Shown piece after piece: positions 1,281-52,050 of a stretch of 64,000 nt of DNA. The stretch spans positions 93,758 through 157,757 of the forward strand of contig JBJKRI010000003.1 in assembly GCA_046704725.1 (NCBI GenBank), written 5' to 3'. The translations under genes were made by a program, and so were the position numbers. The notes under the pieces are model-generated. The model was not told where the DNA came from, searched no databases, and saw only the letters and a list, made by a program, of their open reading frames with translations. The DNA is from Candidatus Woesearchaeota archaeon. GTDB lineage: Archaea > Nanobdellota > Nanobdellia > Woesearchaeales > SKIA01. Position 1 is the stretch's first letter, and each line of letters starts with the position of its first letter.

Positions 1281-3695
1281 ATGCCAGAAGAAGTCTCCGC
1301 GCGCGTCATCGAGGACGAGATGCGGGACGCCTACATGGCCTACGCGATGAGCGTGATTGTGGGCCGCGCACTGCCCCACGTGCGCGACGGGCTCAAGCCC
1401 GTCCATCGTCGGATCCTCTATGCCATGCTCGACATGGGCATGCGCCACAACCAACCCTACAAGAAGAGCGCGCGCATCGTCGGAGAGGTCCTCGGAAAGT
1501 ACCATCCCCACGGTGACTCCGCCGTCTACGACGCGGCCGTGCGCATGGTGCAGGACTTCAGCCTGCGATACCCATTGATTGACGGGCAAGGAAACTTCGG
1601 CAACATCGATGGCGACTCGCCAGCGGCGATGCGATACACCGAGACCCGTCTTGCCAAGATCAGCCAGGAACTCCTCAGCGACATCGACAAGGAGACCGTC
1701 GACTGGTCCGAGAACTTCGACGGAAGCCTCAAAGAACCGTGGGTGCTCCCCGGTCCCCTGCCCAACCTGCTCATCAACGGCTCTGCCGGCATCGCCGTCG
1801 GCATGGCCACCAACATGCCGCCGCACAACCTCACAGAGATCGCCGCCGCGCTCATCGCCTTCATCGACGATCCAGAACTGGATGTCTCCGAGCTCTTGGA
1901 GCTCGTCCCTGGCCCGGACTTCCCGACCGGCGGCATCATCTGCGGACGCTCCGGCATCCGCAGCGCCTACCAGACCGGACGCGGCAAGGTCGTCGTGCGC
2001 GGCGTCATCGAACGCGAAGAGAAGAAGGACCATGTCCGTCTCATCGTCACCGAGATCCCATACCAAGTCGTCAAGGCAGACCTCATCACCCAGATCGCTG
2101 ACCTCGTGCGCGACAAGCGCCTCGAGGGCATCAGCGACATCCGCGACGAGAGCGACCGCCGCGGCATGCGCGTCGTCCTCACCCTCAAGCGCGACGCGAA
2201 TCCCGACGTGGTGGAGAACCAGCTCTACAAGCACACACGATTGCAACAGACCTTCGGCGTCATCAACCTGGCCATCGTCGGGCAAGAGCCCAAGGTATTG
2301 AGCCTGCCCGAGCTCCTCGGCCATTACGTCGCGCACCGCACCGAGGTCGTCACGAGACGCACCGAGCACGACCTGCGTCAGGCGCAGGAGCGCGCCCACA
2401 TCCTCGAAGGCCTCCTGGTCGCCATCGAGCACCTCGACGCGGTCATCCCCCTCATCCGCAGGAGTGCGGACGCCGACGCCGCGAGGACCGCCCTCATCGA
2501 CCGCTACGACCTCACAGACGTCCAGGCGAACGCCATCCTCGACATGCGCTTGCAGCGGCTCACCGGCCTCGAGCGCGACAAGATCGAGACCGAGCACGCA
2601 GAGCTGCAAACGACCATCAAGGACCTCACAGACATCCTCGCCAAGCCCGAACGCATCAAGAACATCCTCAAGGAGGACCTCGAACGCCTCTCGGAGCAGT
2701 ACGGCGACGCGCGACGCACGCGGATCACCGACGCCGAGGAGGACATTGACATCGAGGACCTCATCGAGCCCGAGGACATGGTCGTCACCATCAGCCACTC
2801 CGGCTATGTCAAGCGCTTGTCCGTGAGCACGTATCAGGCCCAGCGCCGCGGCGGCGTGGGCATCATCGGCGCGACCACCAAGGACGACGATTTCGTCGAG
2901 CACCTCTTCGTGGCCAACACCCACAGCCACTTGCTCTTCTTCACGGACAAGGGGGAGGTCTACTGGAAGAAGGTCTATCATCTTCCTGAAGCGTCGCGCA
3001 CCGCGAAGGGAACCCCGTTGGTGAACATCCTCCAGCTCCGTCCCGATGAGCGCGTCAGCGCGGTCATCCCCGTCCACGACTTCTCCGAAGAGGGTTACCT
3101 CTTGTTCGCGACCAAGAACGGTACGGTCAAGAAGACGCCGCTCGCCGACTACAGCCGCCCGCGCCAAGGAGGTATCCACGCCATCGTCCTCGATGAGGGC
3201 GACGATCTGGTGCGCGTGGTTCGCACCTCCGGAGACGATGACATCCTCCTCGCGTCCTCTCGCGGGCAGGCCATCCGTTTCAACGAGAACGACGTGCGCT
3301 CCATGGGACGCGTCTCTCGCGGCGTCCGCGGCATGAAGCTGCGCTCCGACGACGAGGTCATCAGCATGTCGCTCGCAAGCGAAGGAGCGGACGTGCTCAC
3401 CCTCACAGAGCATGGGTACGGCAAGCGCACATCGATAGCTGAATACCCAAAGCAGGGTCGCGGTGGCTATGGCGTGCGCAACATCGTCACCGGCGGACGC
3501 AATGGCAAGGCCGTGTCCTGCCGTGTCGTCGACGGCTCCGACGACCTGTTGCTCATCAGCCAGAACGGCATCATCATCCGCACGCCCGCCAAGGATATCA
3601 GCCGCATCGGGCGCAGCACGCAGGGCGTGCGCGTCATGAAGCTGCGGTCTGGCGACAGCCTCGTGGCGGTCGCGAAGGTCGTCTCCGACGCATAA
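1281..3695 (+). CDS. gyrA: DNA gyrase subunit A
   Basis: 804 aa; [33 protein letters not shown] catalytic-Tyr region and C-terminal beta-pinwheel repeats; TATA ttataaat 20 nt upstream of ATG. Confidence 0.95.
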
Positions 3696-3726
3696 CTTTA
3701 TTATGCACGCGTGACCGGGATACCGT

Positions 3727-4506
3727 ATGGCAGAGGTGAGCGAAGCGCAAGCGCCGCAAGAGCAAGTCGCTGAACCCGATTCTCCGCAGGATACATCCGC
3801 CGCTGCACCAGAACCTCAAGCCCCTCCGGAACAGCCTCCTATCGAAGCGAAGGCCGACCAGGAGGAGGAGCAGGTGCAAGGCGCGGTCGCATCCGCGTCG
3901 GAACGTCCTGACGCCGAACAGGTCACGGAGGAGGACTGGCAGCAGGAAGCGAGGGAGCTCGAGAGCATCGCGCAAGAGCTCGACGCGCTCGCGCAGACCT
4001 GCGAGCAGGTCCTCGAGAAGACCGCGTCCCTCAAGGACCAGGATGCCGTGCAGGACCGGCTCTCAGAATACAGCGCGGACCTCATCCGATTGCCTCGCGC
4101 CATCCAGGCGCTCAATGACTTCCGCCGCTATCTCCCACGCATCAAGGAGCGATCCGACAAGACGCGCGCGGACCTCATCAAGCTGCGTGGCGGCGAGGAC
4201 GACGCGATCACCAGCGAGGAGGACCGACTGCTCACTTCGCTCTCCGGTATCAAGGACCACGTGATCGAGATTATCGCGTCTCTCGAATCGACATTGGAGA
4301 CGGTGCGCAGCGGCGCTGCCGCATTGCTTTCGCTCATCGGTTATCACCAGCCAGGTTTCTATGACTACGCCGTGCAGGCGTTGCGCGTCGTGCGCATCGA
4401 CATTGTTTCCGACGTGGTGCACAAGGAGGTCTTGCGCGTGCGTGCGCTCATCGAGGATATCGGTGCGCTCGCGAAACTGCAGGAGCACGCGCAGTCGTTG
4501 CAATGA
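3727..4506 (+). CDS. hypothetical acidic coiled-coil protein
   Basis: 259-aa ORF, Glu/Gln/Ala-rich N-terminus, TATA tttattat ~25 nt upstream. Confidence 0.5.
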   Translation: MAEVSEAQAPQEQVAEPDSPQDTSAAAPEPQAPPEQPPIEAKADQEEEQVQGAVASASERPDAEQVTEEDWQQEARELESIAQELDALAQTCEQVLEKTASLKDQDAVQDRLSEYSADLIRLPRAIQALNDFRRYLPRIKERSDKTRADLIKLRGGEDDAITSEEDRLLTSLSGIKDHVIEIIASLESTLETVRSGAAALLSLIGYHQPGFYDYAVQALRVVRIDIVSDVVHKEVLRVRALIEDIGALAKLQEHAQSLQ

Positions 4507-4982
4507 GCTTCGAGAACCTCCGGACGAAGGGATGGACCGACGCGGAGATCACGCACTTGCAGCAGCACTTCCATCCGCAAGCGGAGAATCGCACCGTGGT
4601 CGCGTTCGCGCTCATCCTGCTTCTCGCAGCCGCTGTCGGCGTGCCCTTCCTCTATGGATTGTTCGGCGGCGTGATGACCGAATCCATCTTCTGGACGGTG
4701 CTCCTCATCATCGGCGTCCCGCTCGGAGCCGTCTTCGGCGTGTTGCTCGTGGATATCGATCGGTTGACGCGCCAGCACCACATCCTCTTGCTCGTCGCCG
4801 TGCCCGTCGCCGCGGCGATCGGTGGCGCCGCGCTCATCGCGCAGGCCGAAGCGACGGTCCCCGGACTGGCGCCCCACAATGCTCTTATAGGGGGCCTTGT
4901 CTACGCGACCGCATTCATCGCGCCGTACGCGATACTGGTGAAGCGGGAATGGAACTCGAGGATTGGACGCTGGAGTACGTGA
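4503..4982 (+). CDS. hypothetical membrane protein (4 TM)
   Basis: hydrophobic helices; start overlaps upstream stop (ATGA). Confidence 0.45.
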   Translation: MSFENLRTKGWTDAEITHLQQHFHPQAENRTVVAFALILLLAAAVGVPFLYGLFGGVMTESIFWTVLLIIGVPLGAVFGVLLVDIDRLTRQHHILLLVAVPVAAAIGGAALIAQAEATVPGLAPHNALIGGLVYATAFIAPYAILVKREWNSRIGRWST

Positions 4983-5329
4983 AGGCGCGCAACGCCATGC
5001 GCCGCACCCTCAAGAGCCAGTCGAAGGATGGCGACGTCTTGACGTTCGTGCACAGCCACAAGACGCATCACTTCCTCATCGCTCCGGAACTGCACGTTCC
5101 GAAAGCGGAGGACTGGTACACCGTCGTCTGCCTCAACTCCAAGCGTAACGTTGACTTCCTGCTCGCGCACTGGGACGACCTCTGCCAGGACCGTCTCTCG
5201 ATCCTGTTCGTCAATCCCGCGCAGAACCAGTCATGGCAGGTCACGCCCAAGATGCATTCTCTCATCGCGGATCCCGACACTCTCGAGCAGGGCGTGCGCA
5301 CCATGGCCTCCGAAGTCCCGACCGCCTGA
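4949..5329 (+). CDS. hypothetical protein
   Basis: 126-aa ORF starting MELEDWTLEYVKARN inside a longer GC-artefact ORF. Confidence 0.35.
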   Translation: MELEDWTLEYVKARNAMRRTLKSQSKDGDVLTFVHSHKTHHFLIAPELHVPKAEDWYTVVCLNSKRNVDFLLAHWDDLCQDRLSILFVNPAQNQSWQVTPKMHSLIADPDTLEQGVRTMASEVPTA

Positions 5330-5569
5330 TGTTCCTGTATAAGAGGTGCTAGCATGTACAGGTCGTCGCGTAATCTCCTGCGCCGAGCCGTTTGGATCTC
5401 TGCACTTCATCAATCTTCTGTTGCGCCCAACGACCATGTTCCCAGACTCGCCTCATGTACACTTCTCCCTGCGACGGGAAAAGCCGCAGCTGCACGACAG
5501 GCTTGGGATCAAGAATCACATCGGAATCAGCGAGCAACGGATTGTGAGTGAGATGCTGATAGAGCTGGT

Positions 5570-5842
5570 TCATTCCTCGTCTTCCATGCCGGGCTGGCTC
5601 GGGATCGCGTTCTTGCTGATGATCACGATGTCGCCGATGGCCTTGACGAGCTGGTGGGGCACGATCACACCCTTGGCGTTGCCCAGTACTTTCTGGAGGA
5701 AGCTGCCGCGCGTCGCCTTGACGCGCCAGCCGAATATCTTGTTGTTCGTGAGGATGGATTCCTCCACGTCGCCGAAGTAGTCGCCTTCGTCCGTGAAGAC
5801 GCGCATGTCGTACGTCTCCGATATACGCTTCATCCGTAGCAT
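5570..5842 (-). CDS. PRC-barrel domain protein
   Basis: 90 aa; VFTDEGDYFGDVEESIL...GWRV pattern of archaeal PRC-barrel proteins; TATA catatttaaagg ~26 nt upstream. Confidence 0.6.
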   Translation of the reverse strand: MLRMKRISETYDMRVFTDEGDYFGDVEESILTNNKIFGWRVKATRGSFLQKVLGNAKGVIVPHQLVKAIGDIVIISKNAIPSQPGMEDEE

Positions 5843-5996
5843 TCTTCCACCTAAAGCCGATAAGTCGAGAATCCATATTTAAAGGTTGTGGCTCTGGAAG
5901 CGGCGAATCGCGCCTCTGACGGCCCGAGATTCCTCCAAGCCATAACCCTTATAAGGGAGCGGCCGCCGTATCCGACCCAGAGGTGAGTCTTTCCAC

Positions 5997-6257
5997 ATGG
6001 CAGTCGACATCCAGACCGTTACGCTCGCGATCATCCTCGGCACGTTGATGGCGATCGTCTACAGCTTGCGTATCCTCGTGCTTCTCGAACGGCGCATCGC
6101 GCGCATGGACCATCATCTCGAGCTCATGACCATGGCGGTCCTCAAGGATGAGAAGCAGCTCTTGACAGAGGAGACCACGATCGAGCGGCTCGTGAACAAG
6201 TCCAAGGGCCCCGCGAAGCGCGCGCGCAAGAGCAGCAAGAAGAAGTCCAAGAAGTGA
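5997..6257 (+). CDS. small membrane protein with Lys-rich tail
   Basis: 86 aa, one TM helix then KRARKSSKKKSKK tail; palindromic TATA cccttataaggg upstream. Confidence 0.4.
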   Translation: MAVDIQTVTLAIILGTLMAIVYSLRILVLLERRIARMDHHLELMTMAVLKDEKQLLTEETTIERLVNKSKGPAKRARKSSKKKSKK

Positions 6258-6261
6258 TTCA

Positions 6262-6891
6262 GTGATTCGTCACACGTCCTTCAAACACGGGTGGTTCTAC
6301 CACTATCGCGTCCATGAGGAGAAGCTCGCACGCCTTTCCAAGCCGTTTCCCGCATTGCAGCAGTACCTGCTCGGCGTGTTCGACGATTGTCCGGATGAGT
6401 ATTTCCAGAGCGGTCCGCGGGGCTCCAAGCTGCAGATGCCAATCAAGATTGAGCCGGTCCATGTCAAGAACCATGGGTTGTGCGCGATGACTGCATTCGC
6501 ATTGGAGAACGGACGCTTCAAGACAGCGCACAGCAACGTGCAGGTCGCTATGCTCGAGAACGACCACACGACCGTCGCCGTGGAGGTGCCTTTGTGGCTG
6601 CTCCCTGACGATCTCGACGGCTTTTCCGACGTCTTCGGTGAGGACCGTCCGTTGACCGGGCATATCGATGCATTGTCGGTCGACGACGACCGCATCTGGA
6701 TCTGGGACTACAAGCCCGGCGCGTCCAAGGAGCGCTACGCGCACGTGCAGACCTACATGTATGCTGTCATGCTCTCCACGCGCACCGGCATCCCCTTGGA
6801 GAATTTCCGCTGCGGATATTTCGATAAGGAGGACTGCTATGTCTTCTTGCCCGAGCGTCCGGAGCGGGTGCTGCCGATTATCGCCGGATGA
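6262..6891 (+). CDS. PD-(D/E)xK nuclease superfamily protein
   Basis: GHIDAL...IWIWDYKPG motif consistent with D...(D/E)xK core; Cas4/RecB-like fold; partner of Hjc locus. Confidence 0.4.
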   Translation: MIRHTSFKHGWFYHYRVHEEKLARLSKPFPALQQYLLGVFDDCPDEYFQSGPRGSKLQMPIKIEPVHVKNHGLCAMTAFALENGRFKTAHSNVQVAMLENDHTTVAVEVPLWLLPDDLDGFSDVFGEDRPLTGHIDALSVDDDRIWIWDYKPGASKERYAHVQTYMYAVMLSTRTGIPLENFRCGYFDKEDCYVFLPERPERVLPIIAG

Positions 6892-7279
6892 GTTGCTCGA
6901 AGTTGCGTCCGCGCTCCTGCGCATCCTTGTAGGGAAGCACATAATGCTTTCCCGACGACAATAACGTGTGCGCGGGAACGAAGTACCAGCCGCGCCGAAC
7001 GAACTTCACGCCGACCCAGGCTTCCGCGCCGAAGCGCTCTGCGAACGTTTGAAGATCGTTCACCTCTTGGTCCTTGAGGTATTGCCGGTCTCCCTTGCAG
7101 TACTTGGCCTCGACAGCGACGACGCGTCCGTCGTGGCCCGCGATGACATCAGGCACCTCGAGCGGCACCGATCCCGAGCCTGCTGCGCGCACGCCTCCCC
7201 AACCCGCGTCATAGAACAGGTGCAGGAGTTCGCGCTCGGCGGCCGAGCCGCGCGCTTTGGCCGTTCTTCGGGAGGGCAT
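6878..7279 (-). CDS. hjc: Holliday junction resolvase Hjc
   Basis: GSAAERELLHLFYDAGWGGVRAAGSG...PDVIAG...AVEAKY matches archaeal Hjc catalytic motifs. Confidence 0.75.
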   Translation of the reverse strand: MPSRRTAKARGSAAERELLHLFYDAGWGGVRAAGSGSVPLEVPDVIAGHDGRVVAVEAKYCKGDRQYLKDQEVNDLQTFAERFGAEAWVGVKFVRRGWYFVPAHTLLSSGKHYVLPYKDAQERGRNFEQLIRR

Positions 7280-7363
7280 GTGCCTTTCTCTCCCTCCTCA
7301 TTCATAAAGCTGGATGCTCTGTGTCCAGTGAAAGCGTGTGTACAGGCTCCCGAATCCTGGTGC

Positions 7364-8308
7364 CTAATCATCAATGTCGTCGAGTTCCTTCTCGACCTTT
7401 TCACGCGTGCGTTTGGCCTTCTTCATCGCGTCGTCGAGCGTGTCATCGTCTGAGATATCGTCGGGATTCGGTCCGTCGGGCCGTTCCTCAGGCTCGTCCT
7501 CGCCCGTTCGATCCTCTGGCGGTTCTTCATCCTCGGCCGGGGATTCCTCGGCCTTGGGACGCATATCCTCCATCTCCTTGGCGATGCGCTCGCGCGTCTT
7601 CTGGGATTTCTCGAGCACCTTCTCAAGGTCCTCGACGGCGACCTTCTTTCGCAGCTTGGCTCCCTTCTTAGACAGCTCCCTTCCGGTCGCCTCTGTCTCG
7701 CTGGTCTCCGGCTCGTCCACGTCGACAGCCCCTTCCTCCTCCTGCGGGTCGGCGAGCTTCTTCTCCAGGCGTTTCTGGGACAGCTCGATCTCCATCTCTT
7801 TTTGCCGGTGCGCTTCTTCCACCTCGCGGAAGACCTTGCGGATGTCCTCGCGGCCCTCGATGTCGAAGTACTCGAAGAACTTGTCCGTGATGCGCAACTG
7901 GTACGAGCGTCCCTGCGGCTCTTTTGCGACAAAACCACGTTCCACCAGCTCTTTGACATGCTCGTACGCCCCGCTGCCGCGGATAGCGATCAGGTCCGAT
8001 TGCAGCATGGGCGAGCGCCAGGCGATGACCGCGAGCGTCTCTAGGACGGGTCCGGACACTTCAGTGTCCGACACGATCTTCGAGACTAGATCCAGATACT
8101 CATCCTTGACGTGCAGCTTCCAGGCACCCTCGTCCTCGACCACGCGTAGCGCCGAATCCTCGGTGGCGTAGCGCTTCTGCAGCGCCTCGAGCGCCGCGCG
8201 CACCTTCTTGCCGTCCTTCTCGAGGAGCTGTGCGATGTGTGTGGTGTCCATGAAGCGCCCGGAGGCGAACAGGACGGCCTCTACTTCTTTTTCGAGCCGA
8301 GCGTCCAT
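7364..8308 (-). CDS. scpB: segregation and condensation protein B (ScpB) with long acidic C-terminal tail
   Basis: EAVLFASG...LETLAVIAWRSPMLQSDLIAIRG...ELVERGFV winged-helix ScpB signature; extra ~120-aa Glu/Lys-rich tail. Confidence 0.7.
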   Translation of the reverse strand: MDARLEKEVEAVLFASGRFMDTTHIAQLLEKDGKKVRAALEALQKRYATEDSALRVVEDEGAWKLHVKDEYLDLVSKIVSDTEVSGPVLETLAVIAWRSPMLQSDLIAIRGSGAYEHVKELVERGFVAKEPQGRSYQLRITDKFFEYFDIEGREDIRKVFREVEEAHRQKEMEIELSQKRLEKKLADPQEEEGAVDVDEPETSETEATGRELSKKGAKLRKKVAVEDLEKVLEKSQKTRERIAKEMEDMRPKAEESPAEDEEPPEDRTGEDEPEERPDGPNPDDISDDDTLDDAMKKAKRTREKVEKELDDIDD

Positions 8309-8952
8309 TTTTTCCCCTTCTTCGCGATGATCTTCTCCTCTGACATGGGCGCTAGCACGCGTTCCATATCCTCGGCGGAGGTGCCTGCGAGCCGTGCGAG
8401 CTCTTCGGCATCCTTCGGTCCGGAGGCGAGCAGGATCGTGACCATGTTACGCAGGAGGTTCATGATGCTCATCCCGAGATGGGAGATGCGCTGACGCTCC
8501 CCGCGGAGCGTCTGTTGCGTGTAGTGCAGCTGGCTGAGCAGGTCGTTGAACCAGTTCTGCAGGTCGAGATGCTTGATGACGAGCTCCGCGGGCTCGAGCA
8601 TCTCGATGGACGCCGGCGTGTAGTTGAACGCGAGCGACGTGAGCGTCTCGGGCGTCTCCACAGTCATTTCCACCTCAGCGAAGGCGCTGAAGAATCCAGG
8701 GTCCTCCTCGAGCTCGTTGGCCTTCTCCGAATGGATGTCCACGATGCCCAACGCCTTCTCGTCCACGATCTCCTTGAGAAATTTCTTGAGCGTCGTCTCG
8801 ACGTGCTCCTTGGGCGTTCCGACGATCTCGAACGTGACGAGCACGCGGAGGTGCCCTTCGCTGACGCGTTCCTTGGCGTCGTCCTCGCTGATGCGCATGA
8901 GCGTTGCACCGGGCTGCGCATTATAAAGATATTGCCCCGTGCGGGAGCACAA
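8281..8952 (-). CDS. hypothetical protein, possible kleisin-like ScpA partner
   Basis: immediately upstream of and overlapping scpB (operon position of scpA); C-terminal winged-helix-like EELARLAGTSAEDMERVL; no direct ScpA motif recognised. Confidence 0.3.
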   Translation of the reverse strand: MCSRTGQYLYNAQPGATLMRISEDDAKERVSEGHLRVLVTFEIVGTPKEHVETTLKKFLKEIVDEKALGIVDIHSEKANELEEDPGFFSAFAEVEMTVETPETLTSLAFNYTPASIEMLEPAELVIKHLDLQNWFNDLLSQLHYTQQTLRGERQRISHLGMSIMNLLRNMVTILLASGPKDAEELARLAGTSAEDMERVLAPMSEEKIIAKKGKKWTLGSKKK

Positions 8953-8999
8953 CCTTTAAATACGCCATATTCGGTTCAGGACAAAGAGGTGAGCGATAC

Positions 9000-9911
9000 G
9001 TGGGCTTTCTGAGCAAATTAGGGATAGGGCACAAGACAGAAGAGGATGACATTCCGCCTCCGCCACCCCTTCCCGGGACTCCGGACCGCGCGCCCGTCCA
9101 GACCAAGGACGTCGGTCCGCAGGCCAAACCTCCCAAGCTCGACGAGCCCAGCATGCCTCCTCCCGCGCCACCACCAAAGAGCATGCCTCCCCCGATGCCT
9201 GCGGCACCGAAAGAAGCTTCACCCAAGATTCCGCCTGCCAAGATACCAGCACAGTCAATGCCGCCCAAGCCCGACATGAAGGCTCCCAGCGCGCCGCCGC
9301 AGGCGAGCAAGCCGGCGCGCGCGGATGTGAGAAAGGCCTTCTCGGACATCCCGCCCATTACCGTGTCGGCCGAGAGGAAAGCGACCATCACGAACGACCA
9401 GGCGAAAGAGTTCGACGTGGACAAGTTCGTTCTCCCCGAGCATGAGGTCCAACGGGATATGCCTAAGCCGATACCACCCCGTCAATCGAGCACTGCGTCC
9501 GTGCAGCAGTCGTCAGCACCCCGCTCCGCTGCTCCTCTTCCGATGCATCCGCGCCCGCAACGACCGCTACCCCCGGACGCTTCGCACTCGGTGCTCGACC
9601 ATGAATCACCATTCCAGTCGCGCCCGCCCGCTCGTCCGTCCAGTCCAACCACACAGCATGTGGAGCCTCCAGCAGAGCCTCATCAGTCGGGCTTCGCCGG
9701 ACCCCTCTATGTGAATGTCGATACGTATCAGGGTATTCAGAAGGCGCTCAAGGACCTCGACAAGCAGATCACCGACGTGAGCGCGGACATGGAGGATATC
9801 AAGCGTCTCACGAACGATGAGGACAAGCAGTTCTCGGTCATCGTCTCCAAGCTCGAGAAGATCCAGGATGATATCCTGACGATCGACCAGGACCTGTTCG
9901 AGGAGAAATGA
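9000..9911 (+). CDS. proline-rich / coiled-coil protein
   Basis: GTG start after GAGGTGA RBS and TATA cctttaaata; N-terminal PPPPPLPG/PPPAPPPK tracts, C-terminal heptad coiled coil. Confidence 0.5.
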   Translation: MGFLSKLGIGHKTEEDDIPPPPPLPGTPDRAPVQTKDVGPQAKPPKLDEPSMPPPAPPPKSMPPPMPAAPKEASPKIPPAKIPAQSMPPKPDMKAPSAPPQASKPARADVRKAFSDIPPITVSAERKATITNDQAKEFDVDKFVLPEHEVQRDMPKPIPPRQSSTASVQQSSAPRSAAPLPMHPRPQRPLPPDASHSVLDHESPFQSRPPARPSSPTTQHVEPPAEPHQSGFAGPLYVNVDTYQGIQKALKDLDKQITDVSADMEDIKRLTNDEDKQFSVIVSKLEKIQDDILTIDQDLFEEK

Positions 9912-10120
9912 CAGCCATCTACGTAGAGATCAGGCAGTACCGTAGCGTGCTCGACAGTCAGGATACGCTCAAGAGCAAGCTCTTGGCCGCCAAGCGCGTG
10001 CTGCACGAGCTCCATGACATCCGCAACGAGGAGAACAAGGAGCTGCATCGTCTCGAGGCCCAGCTCAAGGAGATGCGCGGCCGTCTCGAGGGCGTCCGCA
10101 CGGAGTTGATGGACGAATGA
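9908..10120 (+). CDS. small coiled-coil protein
   Basis: 70 aa all-helical, ATGA overlap with upstream gene. Confidence 0.45.
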   Translation: MTAIYVEIRQYRSVLDSQDTLKSKLLAAKRVLHELHDIRNEENKELHRLEAQLKEMRGRLEGVRTELMDE

Positions 10121-10590
10121 CTGACGAACCGACCAGTTACTTCGTCGGATTGCACAAGCCGGGCAGCATGCGTAAGGACCTGCTCGAAGGAGCGAAGATC
10201 TCTGTCAACATCCTCAAATCGCAGTATCGGGTGCGCTCGTTGCGAGCGCGCAAGGTCGAGTTGCTCAGTACTCTCGCGAGCATGACGCGCGAACTATCGA
10301 CCTTGGTCGGATCCATACAGATGGACATGCCTGATCAGCAGCCTGACAAGATGCCCAAGGTTGTACGCGAATTGCAGCAACGGCGGGCCAAGGCAGCGGC
10401 GAAGGAGATGGCTGCCAAGCGGGCCGCGGCCAAGAAGGCGTCGAAGAAACCTTCGAAGAAATCCGCGAAGAAGACCCCGAAGAAGGCTGCGCCGAAGCCC
10501 ACTCCTAAACCAGCCCCTCGTCCTGTGGATGACATGGCGCATCTGGAGCAGAAGCTTGCTGACATCGAGAAGAAGCTTAATAAGCTGTGA
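10117..10590 (+). CDS. coiled-coil protein with histone-H1-like Lys/Ala/Pro-rich tail
   Basis: ATGA overlap; C-terminal AKKASKKPSKKSAKKTPKKAAPKPTPKPAP. Confidence 0.45.
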   Translation: MTDEPTSYFVGLHKPGSMRKDLLEGAKISVNILKSQYRVRSLRARKVELLSTLASMTRELSTLVGSIQMDMPDQQPDKMPKVVRELQQRRAKAAAKEMAAKRAAAKKASKKPSKKSAKKTPKKAAPKPTPKPAPRPVDDMAHLEQKLADIEKKLNKL

Positions 10591-10610: not shown

Positions 10611-10713
10611 GTGGGGGTTCCCGAGTGGTCAAAGGGGCAGGACTCAAGCGTCGATTGTGACGGGGATATCCTGTAGCTGAGCGCTTTCGGGGGTTCGAAT
10701 CCCTCCCCCCACA
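10611..10713 (+). tRNA. tRNA-Leu (anticodon CAA) with 19-nt intron after position 37
   Basis: acceptor GTGGGGG/CCCCCAC, anticodon stem CAGGA/TCCTG, loop CTCAAG|intron 10649-10667|A, long variable arm, T-loop TTCGAAT, discriminator A. Confidence 0.8.
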
Positions 10714-10722
10714 TTTTTATGG
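10714..10722 (+). terminator. T-tract terminator after tRNA-Leu
   Basis: acaTTTTTAtgg immediately 3' of tRNA. Confidence 0.4.
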
Positions 10723-10724
10723 AT

Positions 10725-11765
10725 TCACGTGTTTCAGGTGTTCTCCGCCTTGAATTCGATAGATAAGTTTGCGATTTTCAGTGAAATTCTTGGATTGGTC
10801 TGATTTTCCGAATGTCGAGAATTCGTTATTCTCAGGATGCGTGCTTGAAGAATCGCATTTTTCGGATATATCTTGATTTTCGAATTATTGTGTTACAGGC
10901 TTTCAGATACGTGAATTCACTATTTCAGCCACTCAAGGGTTCTGAGCCCTTTGAGGACCTTTAAAATTATTAATTATTGCTTCTCAAAGCCTGAGGAACA
11001 TGAATTCACTCCTTTCAGCTTTCTCAATTCTGTGTGAATTCACTCATTTTTCGGACTGATCGTGCTGCTCCTCACGTGCCTGCAGCGGATCTTGCCTCTT
11101 CTGCTCGATATTCAGGTTACTGTTGGCGTTTCTGTTGTATTTTCTATATAGATATAAATATCATCTACTGAAATTGGATTCTAGAGCTACAGGCTTTGGG
11201 GGACGTGAATTGACGTGTTTACTGATTTTTTGAAATTTTCCGATTTTCTGTGATTTTCGAATTTAATTATAGCTTCTCAAAGGCTGAGGTGTACGAATTC
11301 TCGAGTTCCAATGTCTTTGAAACTGGCTGTTTTGGCTTCAGATCCCGTTCGTTTTGTGGAGTTGGATCCTTCATTTGTGCTATTTTTGGCCTCCGTCGCA
11401 CGCTCTATCTGTCGATTGTATCTTTTTTGATATTTTCTATAATGAAAATAATTGATTTTCCGCTTATTTTCGATCGATTTCTGTGTTTTTGATTCGTGCG
11501 ATATAGGCTTTGGGGGAAATGAATTCTCGAGTTTCGCTATTTTATGGTCTTAAGCTGGATATCTTGGTTTTCTGGCCACGATTCTCGCTTCCCAAAGCCC
11601 GAGGGGGATGAATTCTCGAGAATCAATGATTGAAAACTGGCTTTGTATTACCAAGTATGGAAATATCACACAAAAACCGGAAGATTTCCGGAATGCTTTA
11701 TAATAGATGGTTCCGGCGATGCTGCGATCCGACCCGAAAAATATAGAGTTAAATATTACTTAGTA
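10725..11765. repeat. AT-rich non-coding island with >=7 copies of degenerate ~25-nt motif AGGCTTTgrGGGAnnnTGAATTCnC
   Basis: ~40% GC versus ~60% flanks; no credible ORF; motif copies near 10893, 10985, 11035, 11192, 11272, 11505, 11597; also recurring gattttc and aaactggct elements. Confidence 0.6.
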
Positions 11766-11778
11766 CGACCAGATTGGT

Positions 11779-12042
11779 ATGAGAACTGTTTCTCTCAAGA
11801 TGGCGGACAGTATCCTAGATAGGATCGATGCCCACCTTGAGCGACACAACTTCACGACACGCACGGAATTCATACGGGAAGCCATCCGGGACAAGCTCCA
11901 AGAGCTCGAAAGTGATAGGTTCGAATCAGAAATCCGTAAATACTTCCGGCACCATTCTACCGAATTAGGCAAAGAAATCAACGATATCGAAAGCGACGTG
12001 TTCCGAGAGCTGGAGAACCGCTTCGGAAGACAGCGACGATAG
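11779..12042 (+). CDS. ribbon-helix-helix (CopG family) transcriptional regulator
   Basis: MADSILDRIDAHLERHNFTTRTEFIREAIRDKL RHH motif; TATA aaaatatag ~30 nt upstream. Confidence 0.65.
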   Translation: MRTVSLKMADSILDRIDAHLERHNFTTRTEFIREAIRDKLQELESDRFESEIRKYFRHHSTELGKEINDIESDVFRELENRFGRQRR

Positions 12043-12051
12043 GAGAATACC

Positions 12052-13380
12052 ATGACTCTTGAATTGACCGCCATAGGCGGATATAACGAAGTAGGAAGGC
12101 AGTCCACAGCCGTCAAAGTGGACAATGACGTCATCATCATCGATCTGGGATTGCACCTGGACCAGTACATCAAGTACACAGAGGACGAGGAGGAAGACAT
12201 CAACACGACCAGTTCGCGCGGCCTGCGAAAAGCGGGAGCGATCCCTGATTGGACGAGCATCCGCGACTGGAAAAAGGACGTGCGGGCGATCATCCTGACG
12301 CACGCGCACCTCGACCACGTCGGCGCCGTGCCGTATCTCGCGCGCATCTTCGGGTGCCCTATCTACGGTTCGCCGTTCACCATCGCGTTGCTTAAGCAGC
12401 TCATCGCGGACAAGGATATCGACGTCCCGAACACATTGATCCCTGTGGACAAGAAGGTGAAGATCACTGACAAGGTGACCGCCGAGTTCATCCACATGAC
12501 GCACAGCACTGCGGACAGCCGTTTCGTCGCGCTCCATACGCCGTACGGCGTCGTCTCGATCGACAACGACTACAAGCTCGACCCGCATCCCACGCTCGGC
12601 CACCCGCCCGACTACGCGCGCCTCGGAAAGCTCAAGGGCAATATCATCGCCCATGTCGGCGAGTGCCTGTATGTGCAGAACGCGACCAAGACCCCTTCGG
12701 AGGTCGTCGCCCGCCAGATGCTCGAGGACGTCTTGCTCACGCAGGACTTCAAGAACCGCACGGTCTTCGTTAGCACTTTCTCCAGCCACATCGCGCGTCT
12801 GCACACCCTCATGGAGATCGGCAAGGCCATGGGGCGCGAGGTGGTCTTCCTGGGACGCAGCATGAGCAAGTACCTCGCGGCGGCAGAAGAGGCGAAGATC
12901 CTCAAGACGCCCAAGCACGTCACGTTGCTCAAGTACGGCAGCCAGATACGGCGCTTCTTCAAGCAGCACCGCGACCTGTCATCGTACCTCGTCGTCTGCA
13001 CCGGGCACATGGGCGAGAAGAAAGCGGCCCTCACCAAGCTCGTCGAGGGCAAGTATCCCTTCCGGTTCAAGCCCGACGATGTCGTGGTCTTCAGCAGCCG
13101 CACCATACCCGTGCCGGGAATCATCGCTGACCGTGCCGACCTCCAGCGCAAGCTGCGCGGAGCGCAGGTGCGCATCTTCGACGAGGTCCACGTCTCGGGC
13201 CACGCCTCGCGCGAGGATATCCGTCGCCTCATCCAGCTCATCCGGCCCGAGCACCTCGTGCCGAACCATGGTGTCCCTGCCATGACGGAGAGCTACATCG
13301 CGCTCGCGCGCGAGCTCGGCTACGACCCCGACAAGATCCACAACCTGCGTGAGGGCGACCGCATCGTGCTCGCCAAGTAG
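12052..13380 (+). CDS. archaeal RNase J / beta-CASP metallo-beta-lactamase ribonuclease
   Basis: 442 aa; IIIDLG...ILTHAHLDHVGAVPYL MBL motif plus beta-CASP C-terminal region with HVSGHA. Confidence 0.75.
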   Translation: MTLELTAIGGYNEVGRQSTAVKVDNDVIIIDLGLHLDQYIKYTEDEEEDINTTSSRGLRKAGAIPDWTSIRDWKKDVRAIILTHAHLDHVGAVPYLARIFGCPIYGSPFTIALLKQLIADKDIDVPNTLIPVDKKVKITDKVTAEFIHMTHSTADSRFVALHTPYGVVSIDNDYKLDPHPTLGHPPDYARLGKLKGNIIAHVGECLYVQNATKTPSEVVARQMLEDVLLTQDFKNRTVFVSTFSSHIARLHTLMEIGKAMGREVVFLGRSMSKYLAAAEEAKILKTPKHVTLLKYGSQIRRFFKQHRDLSSYLVVCTGHMGEKKAALTKLVEGKYPFRFKPDDVVVFSSRTIPVPGIIADRADLQRKLRGAQVRIFDEVHVSGHASREDIRRLIQLIRPEHLVPNHGVPAMTESYIALARELGYDPDKIHNLREGDRIVLAK

Positions 13381-26037: not shown

Positions 26038-26532
26038 TCAGGCCAGGTCCTCTCGCAGCAGGACGAAATGCCTGTAGCCCGACCCTTCCGAGTGGTAGGT
26101 GAAGCCGAGCCGCTTGATGAGCTCTTGGGAGCGGATGTTCTCCTCCTTCGCGCTCGCGACGATGTGCGTGAGGCGGAGTCTCCTGAAGGCCTCGCCGATG
26201 ACGAGCTCGAGCGCTTCTTGCGCGTAGCCGTTCCCCCAGTAGGCCCTCCCGAGCCATGTCCCGATGTCGGCGCGCCCGTTCCCGATGTTGAGCAATGACG
26301 CGACCCCGATCGGCCGTTCCGCGTGGATGACGTAGCTCGCGTCCGTCCCTGCCCTGAAGCGCTCGCGCACGTCGGCTATCCAGCCTGCCGTGTCCTCCGG
26401 TCCTTTGGGCTTGGGGATGTTGGTATGCTCGATGACCTCATCCTCTAGCAGCCCGTAGAGGTCCGCGGCGTCGCCGGGCCCCGGGAGAGCTAGCGTGATG
26501 CGCTTTCCATGGATGCGTTGGGGGAGTCTCAT
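26038..26532 (-). CDS. GNAT family N-acetyltransferase (RimL-like)
   Basis: WGNGYAQEALELVIGEAF acetyl-CoA binding motif. Confidence 0.65.
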   Translation of the reverse strand: MRLPQRIHGKRITLALPGPGDAADLYGLLEDEVIEHTNIPKPKGPEDTAGWIADVRERFRAGTDASYVIHAERPIGVASLLNIGNGRADIGTWLGRAYWGNGYAQEALELVIGEAFRRLRLTHIVASAKEENIRSQELIKRLGFTYHSEGSGYRHFVLLREDLA

Positions 26533-26553
26533 ACCGCCACACAGTCTGCAGGA

Positions 26554-27117
26554 TTAGGCAGAATCATTCTTATCCTCACGCGGAGCCACGAGATTTTTCA
26601 GGTACTTTTGAGGATTGAACCTGAATACTAATCCTTCCGCTCGTTCCGGCAACTCGCTGTAAAGCACTTCCACGAAGTCCGGTTCATGAGCGACATATTC
26701 ACGTTGTGCACCCGAACCCAAATGCCTCTTTATTAGATGCCGAATGTATTCATTCACGCTTTTCCTGAGCTCCATCGCATCAAGGATACAGAGAAGCAAT
26801 CCAGGATGGAGGGACAAGTCCCCCTGTGTGAACACATCTTGCGCAATCATCGTCTGTGGAGCGGGATCGTAACTTATCCTATCATCGAAGTCTTTCAACG
26901 GGCTGTTGAAGTATATCTTTAGAAGCCCTTGTGACCATGGTAGCTCGCCTTTGCGGAAAGCCGCGAGAAGGAAGTATTCGGCGAGGACAATGAACATGGC
27001 AGGAGAGTCTGCTTCCTTGCGTAACTGTGCAATGAGCTCTTCTTGTGGTGTTGGTGCCGATTGATACTGTTCATACAGCTCGTTCGCAACTCTGGTGATA
27101 TCGCCTTTGATTGTCAT
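26554..27117 (-). CDS. hypothetical protein
   Basis: 187-aa ORF, lower-GC codon usage. Confidence 0.4.
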   Translation of the reverse strand: MTIKGDITRVANELYEQYQSAPTPQEELIAQLRKEADSPAMFIVLAEYFLLAAFRKGELPWSQGLLKIYFNSPLKDFDDRISYDPAPQTMIAQDVFTQGDLSLHPGLLLCILDAMELRKSVNEYIRHLIKRHLGSGAQREYVAHEPDFVEVLYSELPERAEGLVFRFNPQKYLKNLVAPREDKNDSA

Positions 27118-27162
27118 GTTTCCTCCGATTCACATGAAAAGAGAAAGATAAATGCTTGCTCT

Positions 27163-27495
27163 CTAGAGGGGGAACAAGTCGATGTGATGGGCGTCTCCAA
27201 GGATGGTCCTGCGGCTCGAACCGACCACATCGTAGTTCAGATGAAAGTCGGGGTCTTGGCTCGCGTCGAAACGTTCTTGGAGGCGTCCATATCGCTCAAT
27301 CAACTGTCCTGGAGAGATCAACTCCGGAGCGGTGCGATTCATCCAGTCGTCTCCTGGAAGCGTCGGAGCAGCCCCTCCGGCCATGCCGCCGATGATGGGG
27401 TCGAATATGACTGGCTGTGGCGTGTACAGCGCGGTCGTTCCCATCCGGTACGCGTCTATGTGTGTCGGTGCTTGCAACAATTGTTCCAATGCCAT
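27163..27495 (-). CDS. hypothetical protein
   Basis: 110-aa ORF. Confidence 0.3.
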   Translation of the reverse strand: MALEQLLQAPTHIDAYRMGTTALYTPQPVIFDPIIGGMAGGAAPTLPGDDWMNRTAPELISPGQLIERYGRLQERFDASQDPDFHLNYDVVGSSRRTILGDAHHIDLFPL

Positions 27496-27684
27496 TTTGT
27501 GTTCTCCCTCCTGCAGAGCTCACGCTATGTTGGTCGTTCTCACGCCCGTTTCTCGCGGACGGTCTGCAGGAGTGTCAGTGTTGATGCGGTGACGTGTCGT
27601 GGGGTTCTGTCGATTCCGTCAGGTTTATTTCGAGTCTTGTCGCAGCGGCGAACGCTTTGGGTTGTGGTTTTTGGTTGTTCATAT

Positions 27685-40593: not shown

Positions 40594-41136
40594 GTGGAGA
40601 TCCATTTCCTGACGGGCAACCAGCACAAGCTCGAGGAGGCGCGCGGTATCCTGCAAGGGCATGACGTCCGTTCCATGAGGATCGACCTGCCGGAGCTCCA
40701 GAGCCTCGACCCGCAGGAGATCGTCGAGGCCAAGCTCTCCGCGGCGGACGCGCACCTCCATGGAAAGCCCTATTTCGTCGAGGACGTCTCGTTCTGGGTC
40801 GGCGACACGGGTTTTCCGGGTCCCTTATTCAAGTTCATGTATTCCGCGCTCGGCAGGGAGGGCGTCGTGCGTTTCGCGCGCGCCTTCGGCCAGGAGACCG
40901 CTCGGGCGGTCTGCACCATCGGCTTGCGGCTGCCCGGAAGGGATCCCGCGTACTTCACCGGTGAGGTCGTCGGTCGCATCGTCGATCCGCGCGGCGATTC
41001 TGGTTTCGGCTTCGACCCGATATTCGTTCCGGACGGCAGCGAGCTGACCTGGGCGGAGATGGGCTCAAAGCTCAAGAGCGAGGATAGTCATCGTTCGCGG
41101 GCGCTTGAGCAGATGGTCGCGTATCTCGGCTCTTGA
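40594..41136 (+). CDS. non-canonical purine NTP pyrophosphatase (Ham1/RdgB)
   Basis: MEIHFLTGNQHKLEEARGIL; GTG start 1 nt after tRNA-His 3' end. Confidence 0.8.
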   Translation: MEIHFLTGNQHKLEEARGILQGHDVRSMRIDLPELQSLDPQEIVEAKLSAADAHLHGKPYFVEDVSFWVGDTGFPGPLFKFMYSALGREGVVRFARAFGQETARAVCTIGLRLPGRDPAYFTGEVVGRIVDPRGDSGFGFDPIFVPDGSELTWAEMGSKLKSEDSHRSRALEQMVAYLGS

Positions 41137-41494
41137 TGATATTCTCGATCGCTTCTGAGATAGTATCGCTAAGCAGTCTGCTATCATATCTGCGTTCGCC
41201 TGCGCGATATTCCGCAACTTCTCCATGGATTACGGCATACCCCATCATAATGACTCCGATGCCGGCCCCGAACTCAGCACCTGCCGCAATAGGAAAACCG
41301 CCTGCAAGCGTGTGCGCGTGCTGAATAACTTCGGGGGTGATATGCGTCGCTGCGCTGTATAGTGCGTCCCGGATGTCATGCGCTTGCTGCAGAAATCCGT
41401 AGATTCGCGTCGTTCCATCCACTGCCAAGTATGCGCCGACACCAGCATTTATTGCTGAAGATAATACTGCTGCCTTTGAGAATAGTCTTGACAT
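41072..41494 (-). CDS. hypothetical protein
   Basis: 140-aa ORF with Gly/Ala-rich core; TATA cattaataaatg upstream; 65-nt convergent overlap with ham1. Confidence 0.3.
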   Translation of the reverse strand: MSRLFSKAAVLSSAINAGVGAYLAVDGTTRIYGFLQQAHDIRDALYSAATHITPEVIQHAHTLAGGFPIAAGAEFGAGIGVIMMGYAVIHGEVAEYRAGERRYDSRLLSDTISEAIENIIKSRDTRPSAQAPANDDYPRS

Positions 41495-41707
41495 ATTTGT
41501 GTAGACACCCCTCCATTAATAAATGTGTCTATTTTACTCACTCATAAGTAGTATTTTAAGCAATTATTTGAATCATTTGCGGCGTTGCGCCCTGTGCAAG
41601 AAATTCCATACCTTTTTAAAGCGTCTCGGATTCGCCCCGGTATCACGCCCGAGTGCAAGCGTCTGAGGGCGGCCGAAAAGGCATTTCTTGCGCTCGATAC
41701 GATACAC

Positions 41708-47627: not shown

Positions 47628-48716
47628 TTACTTCTTGCGCTTCTCGGCGATCCGTTCGTGCGCGACTTTCATGCACGCTTCGCGCGCCGTGCACTTCTCT
47701 TTCTCGATGATGTCCCACACGTCCTTCACGTTCCGCTTGATGATGCGTTCGATCTCTCCGAAGACCTCTTCGTGCGTTCCTCCGACGTGCTCGATGTAGC
47801 TGCTGATCACACCGCCAGCGTTCGCGAGGATGTCCGGGATGTTCTGCACGCCCCGTCCTTCCAAAGTCTTCTCTACCTCGTCGGGTATGGGCAGGTTCGC
47901 TCCTTGGCTGATGAGTTTCGCGCGCACTTTCTTCTGGTTGTCGGCGGTGATGACGTTCTTCTGCGCCGCTGGCACGAGGATGTCGCATTCCGCGTAGAGC
48001 ACCCACATCGAGTCGCGCTTCTCGTGCTCGGGATAGTCTTTCAACGGTTTTCGCTGTTCTTTCCACAGTCGCAGCTTGTGCGCGTCCATGCCCTCGGGAT
48101 CAACCAGTGTGCAGCTGCTGTCCGACGCGGCCACCAATCGCGCCCCGTCTTTCTGCATGAATTCGGCGGCCCACGAGCCCACGTTGCCATAGCCCTGGAT
48201 CGCCACGTCCTTTCCGGCGAGCGTGTCCTTTGAGCGGCCGAGCAGTTCTCGCACGCTGATGTACACGCCGTGTCCCGTCGAGCCGAGCTCGTGCGGTATG
48301 CCCCCCAGGTCTGCGGGCTTTCCGGTCACCGCTTGCGGCCCGATCTCCTCGGCGATCCACCGCATCTCGCGCTCGGCCATGTTCATGTCGGGCGCTGCCA
48401 CGTATTTCGTCGGTGCGACGATGTTGATGGCGTGCGCGAAGGCGCGCACGATCCCTTCTTTCTCCTGCGCGGTGAGCTTCTTGGCGTCGGCGATGATGCC
48501 GCTCTTCCCCCCGCCGAAGGGCAGGTCCGCCAAGGCGTTCTTGAGCGTCATGGCGCGCGCCAGGCCGCAGACCTCTTCTTCGTCCACGGTCGGCGTCATG
48601 CGGATGCCTCCTTTGGCCGGTCCGCGCACGGTGCTGTCCAGGACGGTGATGCCGCGCATCCCTGTCTTGGGGTCGTATACTTTCAGGATGGTCTCTGGTC
48701 CGAGGTCGTCGTACAT
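47628..48716 (-). CDS. Glu/Leu/Phe/Val dehydrogenase family amino-acid dehydrogenase
   Basis: KGGIRMTP...LPFGGGKSGI...GYGNVGS motifs; 362 aa (leucine-DH-like size); TATA ccttatatatt 25 nt upstream. Confidence 0.8.
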   Translation of the reverse strand: MYDDLGPETILKVYDPKTGMRGITVLDSTVRGPAKGGIRMTPTVDEEEVCGLARAMTLKNALADLPFGGGKSGIIADAKKLTAQEKEGIVRAFAHAINIVAPTKYVAAPDMNMAEREMRWIAEEIGPQAVTGKPADLGGIPHELGSTGHGVYISVRELLGRSKDTLAGKDVAIQGYGNVGSWAAEFMQKDGARLVAASDSSCTLVDPEGMDAHKLRLWKEQRKPLKDYPEHEKRDSMWVLYAECDILVPAAQKNVITADNQKKVRAKLISQGANLPIPDEVEKTLEGRGVQNIPDILANAGGVISSYIEHVGGTHEEVFGEIERIIKRNVKDVWDIIEKEKCTAREACMKVAHERIAEKRKK

Positions 48717-51994: not shown

Positions 51995-52050
51995 AATGAG
52001 CTTTGTTGTCGAACGCGATGTTTTTTAAGAGCGTTTCCTGTCCTCGCCGC

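Follow-up and report, generated by a model that had tools for sequence, protein, structure and literature searches.

What role could be played by a stretch of AT-rich, gene-free DNA, about 1 kb long, that directly follows a tRNA-Leu gene in a genome of Candidatus Woesearchaeota and carries degenerate copies of one motif? This island lies in a 64,000-nucleotide stretch (assembly GCA_046704725.1, contig JBJKRI010000003.1, positions 93,758 to 157,757 of the forward strand; hereafter the window, in whose own coordinates positions without a locus label are given), and we compared the window locus (W) with those of nine relatives (L002-L010), i.e., ten loci. Based on this comparison, the island appears to be a vertically inherited element that functions at the level of DNA, and it is well supported that its repeats are DNA-level sites for a predicted sequence-specific binding protein, paired on one face of the helix and kept by selection in a clade of DPANN archaea. 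Most likely, the array, together with the AT-rich elements found in it, would be the chromosomal replication origin, or one of them, with an initiator that would be encoded elsewhere, a reading to which we give a probability of roughly 0.4.

A first-pass annotation of this DNA had described a fall in GC from about 60% to about 40% over roughly 1040 bp and no open reading frame (ORF) of coding-like composition, and both descriptions hold. GC is 0.391 for 10725-11765 vs. 0.602 for the window, and the island is the sole place in the 64 kb where 500-bp windows go under 0.47 GC; milder dips (0.49-0.53) are seen at 26501-27500 and 41001-41500. The five ORFs of the island (44-80 amino acids) have a GC content at third codon positions (GC3) of 0.30-0.44, against 0.67-0.91 in the real genes here. 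As to the possibility that the island is part of a coding gene conserved in relatives, none of these ORFs has a credible tblastn match there, nor was any conserved translation found. Its placement directly 3' of tRNA-Leu agrees with the tRNA match of Rfam at 10611-10713 (+).

A profile hidden Markov model (HMM) of the motif finds six plus-strand copies in the window locus (E 3e-4 to 7e-3), together with an inverted copy and two further, weak ones (Table 1), so that the "at least seven" copies counted at first pass is about right. Elsewhere in the window the HMM matches just once, at position 145 (E = 6). With up to 3 mismatches allowed, the two patterns by which the copies had originally been described match 2 and 3 times, vs. 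0.02 and 0.00 expected, all inside the island; by pattern scan and HMM alike, the motif in the 64-kb window is confined to the island. Copies of the A type read ACAGGCTTTGGGGGA-NN-TGAATTC and those of the B type CTTCTCAAAGCCTGAGG-N4-TGAATTCTCGAG. The two are variants of one motif, and their apparent complementarity arises because a near-palindromic AAAGSCTTT box is present in every copy. Anchors on GAATTC are spaced by 89, 205, 88, 226, and 89 bp, i.e., the copies form three pairs, one in each of three degenerate units of ~300 bp that are arranged in tandem with a further, incomplete one, and the repeat families D1 and D2 recur at matching spacings (294/314 and 293/315). The spacing is therefore not plainly irregular, as had been proposed, although it remains too irregular for clustered regularly interspaced short palindromic repeats (CRISPR). 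Recurring sub-motifs and AT runs had also been pointed out, and they are present: the word TTTTC(C/G) occurs nine times in the island (8.5 per kb vs. 0.7 per kb outside), "aaactggct" occurs twice, each time ~25 nt past a B-type copy, and the AT runs lie at 10961-10978 and 11259-11271.

The relatives were delimited by RNase J, encoded downstream of the island. Seventeen RNase J proteins are 62-75% identical to the one in the window, the next relatives reach only ~50%, and the named matches belong to Candidatus Woesearchaeota or Nanoarchaeota (DPANN), which places the source organism in a small clade. Within the ten loci, RNase J is 62-91% identical from one to another, and genomic GC ranges from 36 to 60%. 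All ten share one gene order: ScpB (-), an MJ0538-family gene (-), three small plus-strand genes (fewer called in L008), an intron-containing tRNA-Leu, the gap, a ribbon-helix-helix (RHH) gene where present, RNase J and PCNA. The gap is gene-free for 0.8-1.6 kb and lies 6-19 GC points under its surroundings. In L011, a woesearchaeon that is farther removed (RNase J 47% identical, 731-kb contig), a 16S-23S operon stands head-to-head with RNase J-PCNA at 4887-9765, where the clade has its island, and no island is present; the island is therefore a feature of this clade. One locus, L006, has at 3300-3923 an extra minus-strand DUF4202 gene right after the tRNA, bordered by a partly duplicated tRNA 3' end (gtgcgaatccctcttcccaca); it looks like a small insertion, distinct from the island.

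Every island contains same-strand repeats, and in seven of the ten loci (W and six relatives) these could be mapped as 4-12 copies of a ~48-bp lineage-specific motif. It reads (CTCGA)GAATTCTCGAG in W and L003, GTGCWCGTYGAATTCACGTGAATTGG in L004 and L005, and TAGAGCTCTTGAAGAGTGTTAATTCGTACAATTAGGTACT in L008 and L009, and further variants occur in L002, L007, and L010, AT-rich loci for which single-sequence nhmmer is too insensitive and in which the repeats were shown by direct repeat finding; an iterated HMM drifted to the L004/L005 subtype. Searched with nhmmer over the 164,780 bases of the ten loci, of which the islands make up 7%, the motif HMM has all its matches with E <= 0.1 inside islands. 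Likewise, GAATTC has a density of 2-10 per kb in the islands of W and L003-L006 vs. 0-0.4 outside. Between 48-mers of the motif, identity is 0.52-0.66 within a genome and 0.43-0.50 between distant genomes, vs. 0.27-0.30 for random island 48-mers; the copies thus appear to be homologous and to evolve in a lineage-specific manner, as iterons and origin recognition boxes (ORBs) do with their binding proteins.

An alignment of 45 copies from seven genomes, anchored on GAATTC, has a conserved block from about -30 to +17 (AATTnTnnnnTTAnAAGnTnTGTnnAnnnTGAATTCnCGnGATTnGG). AT-rich boxes recur in it about every 10 bp (at about -28, -18, -9, +2, and +12), accompanied by GAATTC-type dyads or 10-bp direct half-sites (CTCGAGAATT CTCGAGAATT; CACGTCGAAT TCACGTGAAT), and low-GC relatives have a palindrome, AGAGCTCT, in the left part of the motif. 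Dyads together with a 10-bp phasing are what protein contacts along a single helix face typically look like, and we take them as the likely imprint of such contacts. The arrangement in pairs is conserved as well: the two copies of a pair are spaced by 88-89 bp in W, by 88, 68, and 88 bp in L003, by 74-78 bp (once 88) in L004/L005, by 76-78 bp in L008/L009 and by 67 and 99 bp in L006. Pairs recur every ~190-315 bp, distances of 67-99 bp alternate with 137-426 bp between anchors, and the gap between paired copies is mostly 27-42 bp. This spacing is conserved while the intervening sequence is not. Even in L008 and L009, with RNase J 91% identical, the spacers have diverged, and the islands can be aligned at nothing but the motif blocks and the AT element; the RHH promoter was part of the sequence compared for L007 and L009, and there it aligns. 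Selection therefore appears to maintain short sites and the places they occupy rather than long transcripts. Conservation is highest in the last unit, where an AT element and two copies are followed, after about 110-125 bp, by the RHH promoter; in W, L003, L004, and L006-L010 this unit stands immediately upstream of that promoter.

A scan of one metagenome collection (the sample of L003 being absent from it) for the two-copy pattern gave 34 loci, all of them unrelated and lacking both the extended motif and RNase J. Among other sequences, an unrelated metagenome contig of 34% GC (L013, Ga0116183_1001175) has at 3898-5111 a tandem array of 19 matches to GAATTCTCGAG-N60-90-AATTCTCGAG with a period of ~140 bp; it has no RNase J, and a single borderline match to the motif HMM lies outside the array (6582-6616, E 0.0058).

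Besides the motif, the islands hold AT-rich elements. In the window, units 2 and 3 each open with a very AT-rich, partly palindromic element with the core TTCTATATAGA, and words of the TATAGAA/TTCTATA/TATGGAA/TTCCATA type reach 1.67 per kb in the ten islands vs. 0.14 outside (~12x). The TATAGAA/TTCTATA-type words sit upstream of the first copy of a pair, and most islands have one to four words of the TCTATATAGA type, whose position upstream of the first copy is a reading of the sequences by eye. Other words, TTCCG/TTTCCG, are enriched in only some of the islands.

Archaeal origins have been described as an AT-rich unwinding element flanked by several conserved repeats, which differ from genus to genus in number and orientation as well as in sequence and spacing (PMC5333045, PMC4010727). 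The island fits this definition: it is a long AT-rich intergenic region, in W as in the nine relatives, and several conserved repeats are confined to it (six or seven in W, 4-12 in six of the nine relatives). We postulate that the ~48-bp repeats, with GAATTC-type dyads and with AT boxes phased at ~10 bp, would hold a protein along a single helix face, at three to six pairs over ~1 kb, and that the AT-rich palindromic TCTATATAGA-type elements, mostly lying between pairs, could serve in duplex opening and helicase loading. The binder would presumably be an initiator of the Orc1/Cdc6 type, encoded elsewhere and co-evolving with the repeats. With the origins of Pyrococcus, Sulfolobus (oriC1/oriC2), and haloarchaea, the island shares the long AT-rich intergenic region, lineage-specific repeats of tens of bp, very AT-rich segments with the potential to unwind and replication genes nearby (PMC5333045, PMC4010727), the neighbourhood in the window holding GyrA, Hjc, ScpB, and PCNA as replication or chromosome genes. 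It differs from them in that no orc1/cdc6 or whiP is adjacent, no canonical ORB core is present and no skew switch is seen, and in that its copies, set in fixed-spacing pairs within tandem units of 190-315 bp, run nearly all one way, where those origins have theirs inverted around an unwinding element.

These differences, with some further observations, weigh against an origin. Adjacency to orc1/cdc6 and inverted ORBs around the unwinding element are the usual criteria for one (PMC3528665). Gene-family scans (Pfam or NCBIfam, run on 42 of the larger ORFs of the window) gave no orc1/cdc6, whiP, or other AAA+ initiator gene from -11 to +52 kb, and there is none among the called genes within ~5 kb in L003-L010. 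Significant copies number 42 on the plus strand and 1-2 on the minus strand, and the two inverted ones (W 10836-10808 and L004 3627-3603) are located at the tRNA edge, not around the AT-richest elements. A scan of the window with the mini-ORB core (consensus of the TTCCA-N-TGGAAAC type) gave 36 matches at up to 3 mismatches vs. [quoted passage not shown] The first-pass annotation had suggested a check of GC skew; within the 64-kb window, GC3 skew regressed on gene orientation and side has no switch at the island (t = 0.5). Left-flank skew is below right-flank skew in nine of the ten loci, but gene orientation confounds this comparison, and skews in archaea are frequently weak. Furthermore, the plus strand of the island is rich in G+T in ten of ten loci (keto skew +0.08 to +0.29), and over the ten islands it has 127 oligo-T runs (T5+) vs. 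35 oligo-A runs (A5+), which points to a directional process, e.g., transcription or one-way fork passage. Such a uniform asymmetry is expected of a non-template strand or of an always-leading strand, not of a symmetric origin. The suggestion, made at first pass, of ORB-like initiator sites beside an unwinding element is thus the best fit as regards architecture and conservation in ten genomes, but several defining features are missing: no orc1/cdc6 is seen nearby, the canonical ORB core is absent, hardly any copy is inverted and the skew does not switch.

More tentatively, and rather as a doubtful extension than as an expectation, the island may represent an undescribed kind of archaeal chromosome-maintenance element, i.e., an origin (or an origin combined with a centromere) unlinked to orc1/cdc6, made of oriented ~48-bp repeat pairs and palindromic TCTATATAGA-type elements, conserved in the clade and recognized in a manner unlike canonical ORBs, in which the G+T-rich strand and the common orientation might reflect unidirectional or transcription-assisted opening.

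The rival explanation that survives best, though we hold it to be rather unlikely, sees the copies as small transcription units, in which an AT-rich TATA-like element, the motif and an oligo-T run would give a noncoding RNA of ~50-90 nt, or as parts of one repeat-bearing RNA acting as a protein sponge. The near-uniform orientation of the copies, which is that of the flanking genes, the G+T-rich plus strand, a signature expected of the non-template strand, and the excess of T5+ over A5+ runs (127 to 35) would all suit it. Oligo-T occurs at +6..+50 after 25 of the 45 copies vs. 17.1 +/- 3.2 for random placements (P = 0.016), with a cluster at +16..+19, and by eye it follows within 36 nt after 11 of the 13 copies that have an TCTATATAGA-type element upstream of the first copy of the pair; element 1 of the window also resembles the RHH promoter (D12, 88%). 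However, the T-run excess is explained by base-composition skew alone. A matrix of the transcription factor B recognition element (BRE) and TATA box, learned from 31 genes of the window, finds the promoters of tRNA-Leu (14.0 bits) and of the RHH gene (13.9), yet no motif copy reaches 9 bits, vs. 11-14 for real promoters, and upstream of the 45 copies from seven genomes it has no preferred offset; a promoter array was accordingly rejected as a candidate. Folds of the A-B units scored against shuffles are inconsistent (z -1.9, +0.3, and +0.2 on the plus strand; -2.5, -0.2, and -1.1 on the minus strand), with different structures for each unit, and the dyad would make only a 5-6 bp A-U-rich stem that is not kept in all copies. 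Rfam 15, at gathering thresholds and at E <= 1, reports only the tRNA, the next best match being Fibrobacter-1 at 19.3 bits vs. a gathering threshold of 77.9. Outside the ~48-bp block there is no conservation even in close relatives. Two particular RNA identities were also rejected: a long-range A-B stem (AGGCTTTGGGG pairing with CCCAAAGCC) exists only in unit 3 of W and is lost in L003-L005, and C/D-box small RNAs or split-tRNA halves are contradicted by the lack, on inspection, of box C/D or T-loop features and of matches to tRNA models. The family of small promoter or noncoding RNA units imagined at first pass is therefore weakly supported at best: the single orientation, the T-rich plus strand and the modest oligo-T excess speak for it, whereas promoter matches, a consistent fold, an Rfam family and conserved spacers are all missing.

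Unlikely as well, and slightly more so, is a centromere-like or chromosome-organising array, on which a partition protein, a condensin-loading protein or a nucleoid protein (perhaps the RHH protein or the ScpB-linked products) would assemble for segregation or folding. Same-orientation repeats with dyads are typical of plasmid centromeres (F sopC, R1 parC), and the island resembles these and plasmid iterons in its direct, one-way repeats with an internal dyad beside an AT-rich segment, and in the small RHH-type gene with its own operator downstream. That small gene is called immediately downstream in eight of the ten loci, with an RHH match in W and weakly in L007 and L009, the cluster of ScpB, the MJ0538-family gene and the small genes is strictly linked to the island in all loci, and AT boxes phased every 10 bp would suit the wrapping or bending of DNA. 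In iteron origins and centromeres (F sopC, R1 parC, P1- and RK2-type iterons), however, repeats are contiguous, at 11-43 bp, whereas those of the island are dispersed (67-426 bp between anchors), chromosomal and vertically inherited, have no plasmid match and are not accompanied by an adjacent rep or par ATPase gene. An adjacent ATPase of the SegA/ParA type is missing, the sole ParA-like gene of the window being of the NUBPL/Mrp type and 11 kb off. L002 and L005 have intact arrays, that of L005 being the largest, with no RHH gene called, and the RHH gene of the window has its own, different palindromic operator. A comparison with SegAB leads in the same direction. An RHH gene beside palindromic sites, and a AGAGCTCT box in the low-GC relatives that is reminiscent of the AGA-S-TCT core of SegB sites, make up the likeness (PMC12284271). 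SegB sites are, on the other hand, 13 bp long (TCTAGA-S-TCTAGA), and in Sulfolobales they are scattered and mostly intragenic, not arrayed (PMC12284271), while here segA is absent, the motif is different (the SegB consensus was not scanned formally), two loci have no RHH gene called, and the RHH protein is without SegB similarity among its PDB matches.

Quite improbable, in our view, is a regulatory or titration region, i.e., operator or upstream activating sites for the RHH-RNase J-PCNA genes, or a sink for an initiator or regulator. The conservation of the last unit directly upstream of the RHH promoter would agree with it, as would the weak resemblance of the RHH protein to the cell-cycle regulators CdrS and aCcr1 (PMC9976878). 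ORB clusters with a negative regulatory role are documented, and in Haloarcula an ORB-rich cluster represses oriC2 (PMC4010727). That cluster, downstream of oriC2 in Haloarcula hispanica, is, as the island would be on this reading, a cluster of initiator-type sites and not itself the unwinding site (PMC4010727); it differs in adjoining the origin and a cdc6 gene and in using ORB sequences, neither of which is seen here. Moreover, the 6-13 sites, spread over 1-1.5 kb, greatly outnumber those of any known archaeal promoter, they lie from 130 bp to >1000 bp upstream of the promoter, and the array persists, at its largest, in L005, where no RHH gene is called.

Largely refuted, finally, is a decayed mobile-element remnant at tRNA-Leu, as the first-pass annotation had also proposed, or a degenerate CRISPR-like mini-array: a site directly 3' of a tRNA gene is a classic integration site, L006 has its small insertion with a partial tRNA 3' duplicate and a DUF4202 gene, and ~48-bp pairs with 27-42 bp gaps look superficially like repeat-spacer-repeat, but the same site, architecture and positionally homologous copies recur in all ten loci, the 42 larger window ORFs that were scanned and the genes called in the relatives include no integrase, transposase, cas, rep, or par gene, and similarity between the motif and the tRNA does not go beyond chance. 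A descent of the motif from the 3' half of tRNA-Leu, plausible by eye for GGCTTT-N7-TCGAAT, was rejected on shuffle controls (mean z -0.1; 1 of 46 copies with p <= 0.05). Plasmid and phage BLAST searches gave no match and two viral scans 0 matches, so the comparison with viruses proposed at first pass brought up nothing viral, phage-derived, or plasmid-borne. CRISPR was rejected too: partly palindromic repeats of similar length with unrelated sequence between them are a likeness, but identity among the repeats amounts to no more than 0.52-0.66, short spacings alternate with long ones, the Pfam scans have no cas domains, and copies are positionally conserved between genomes.

Table 1 Features of the island and its borders in the window (the whole window has 60.2% GC)
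Feature	Position	Strand	Evidence and remarks
BRE/TATA promoter of tRNA-Leu, left boundary	10566..10583	+	14.0 bits; 27 nt before the tRNA 5' end
Intron-containing tRNA-Leu (anticodon CAA)	10611..10713	+	Rfam RF00005, 42.7 bits
AT-rich gene-free island	10716..11778		1063 bp; GC 39.1% vs. 60.2% for the window
Two weak degenerate motif copies by the tRNA (GGATTCACGTG; ...CCTTGAATTCG)	10720..10760	+	nhmmer E 1.4 and 9.2; partial unit u0 in the alignment
Inverted motif copy at the edge nearest the tRNA	10808..10836	-	nhmmer E 0.058; inverted repeats I1, I3
Motif copy A1, anchor GAATTC 10913	10883..10930	+	nhmmer 10892-10922, E 0.0023; extent -30..+17 from the 45-copy profile
Motif copy B1, anchor 11002, 89 bp after A1	10972..11019	+	nhmmer 10981-11018, E 0.0006; exact pattern match
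Extra half-motif GTGTGAATTCACTCATTT	11031..11049	+	repeat D5; 93% identity with the core of B1
AT-rich palindromic element 1 (TTTTCTATATAGATATAAATAT), candidate unwinding element	11137..11161		repeat families D9, D12
Motif copy A2, anchor 11207	11177..11224	+	nhmmer 11187-11221, E 0.0066; pattern match with 1 mismatch; T6 run at +19
Motif copy B2, anchor 11295, 88 bp after A2	11265..11312	+	nhmmer 11274-11310, E 0.0013; pattern match
AT-rich element 2 (TATTTTCTATAATGAAAATAAT)	11431..11452		D9; 77% identity with element 1
Motif copy A3, anchor 11521	11491..11538	+	nhmmer 11502-11536, E 0.00032; exact match
Motif copy B3, anchor 11610, 89 bp after A3; holds palindrome GAATTCTCGAGAATC	11580..11627	+	nhmmer 11590-11625, E 0.0013; pattern match
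Palindrome AAGATTTCCGGAATGCTT	11681..11698		inverted repeat I18
RHH gene promoter, right boundary	11737..11756	+	13.9 bits
RHH protein gene	11779..12042	+	Pfam RHH_1, E 1.9e-5
RNase J-like gene	12052-13380		directly after the RHH gene

The inverted copy at the tRNA edge has an equivalent in L004 (3627-3603, E 0.012). The tRNA-Leu gene that borders the island is reported by Rfam and missed by ARAGORN because of its intron; its anticodon CAA and long variable arm were read by eye. It is 103 nt long in W vs. 118-130 nt in the relatives (Rfam matches at L003 3745-3874, L007 3438-3557, L008 3438-3555, and L009 3397-3516), and its conserved 3' end is present in ten of ten loci. Promoters throughout the window are highly uniform and have a BRE of the form cGAAA/cATAA followed by CTTTAWATA, ending 20-24 nt (about 22) before the start codon (e.g., 1281, 14505, and 47628-48716; ~30 genes). 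That the promoter ends ~22 nt before the ATG implies that mRNAs are mostly leaderless.

On the other side of the island, the small gene between the gap and RNase J is called in eight of the ten loci, where it presumably encodes the RHH protein (with a weak RHH_8 match in L007 and L009), and in L002 and L005 none is called. The RHH protein of the window has sub-threshold matches to CdrS (E 5.6e-4), aCcr1 (E 1.4e-3), and NikR-N. Its gene has a palindrome of its own, AATACnTAGTATT, in the interval from TATA box to ATG, the position described for aCcr1 boxes (PMC9976878), and owing to this palindrome we consider that the protein may regulate itself and would not be the binder of the main repeats.

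Upstream of the tRNA, the cluster conserved in the window (6878-10590) and in L002-L010 consists of ScpB, the MJ0538-family protein, which has a C-terminal winged-helix-like region, and three small proteins, i.e., a proline-rich one, a 70-aa coiled coil and a helix-hairpin-helix (HhH)/coiled-coil protein with a basic linker. Sequence searches of the PDB with the RHH, HhH, and MJ0538-family proteins gave nothing decisive. Farther along the window, at 52003-55281, a leucyl-tRNA synthetase of 1092 aa has an inserted alpha/beta-hydrolase domain (Ser_hydrolase/Abhydrolase) at residues ~455-640, in addition to the usual editing and anticodon-binding domains.

The prediction of archaeal origins leans almost entirely on adjacency to orc1/cdc6 and on ORB-like motifs, and our search of the literature found no paper on a mapped origin in DPANN archaea, which are mostly uncultivated. 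The 48-bp motif offers a DNA bait for finding the binding protein, and the island a positional marker for coverage-based analysis of replication of these genomes in metagenomes. Should the island be an origin, a conserved repeat island without adjacent orc1/cdc6 or ORB motifs would extend what an archaeal origin can look like; otherwise, it would represent a new class of chromosomal protein-binding array in this clade, i.e., a centromere, a condensin-loading site or a titration site.

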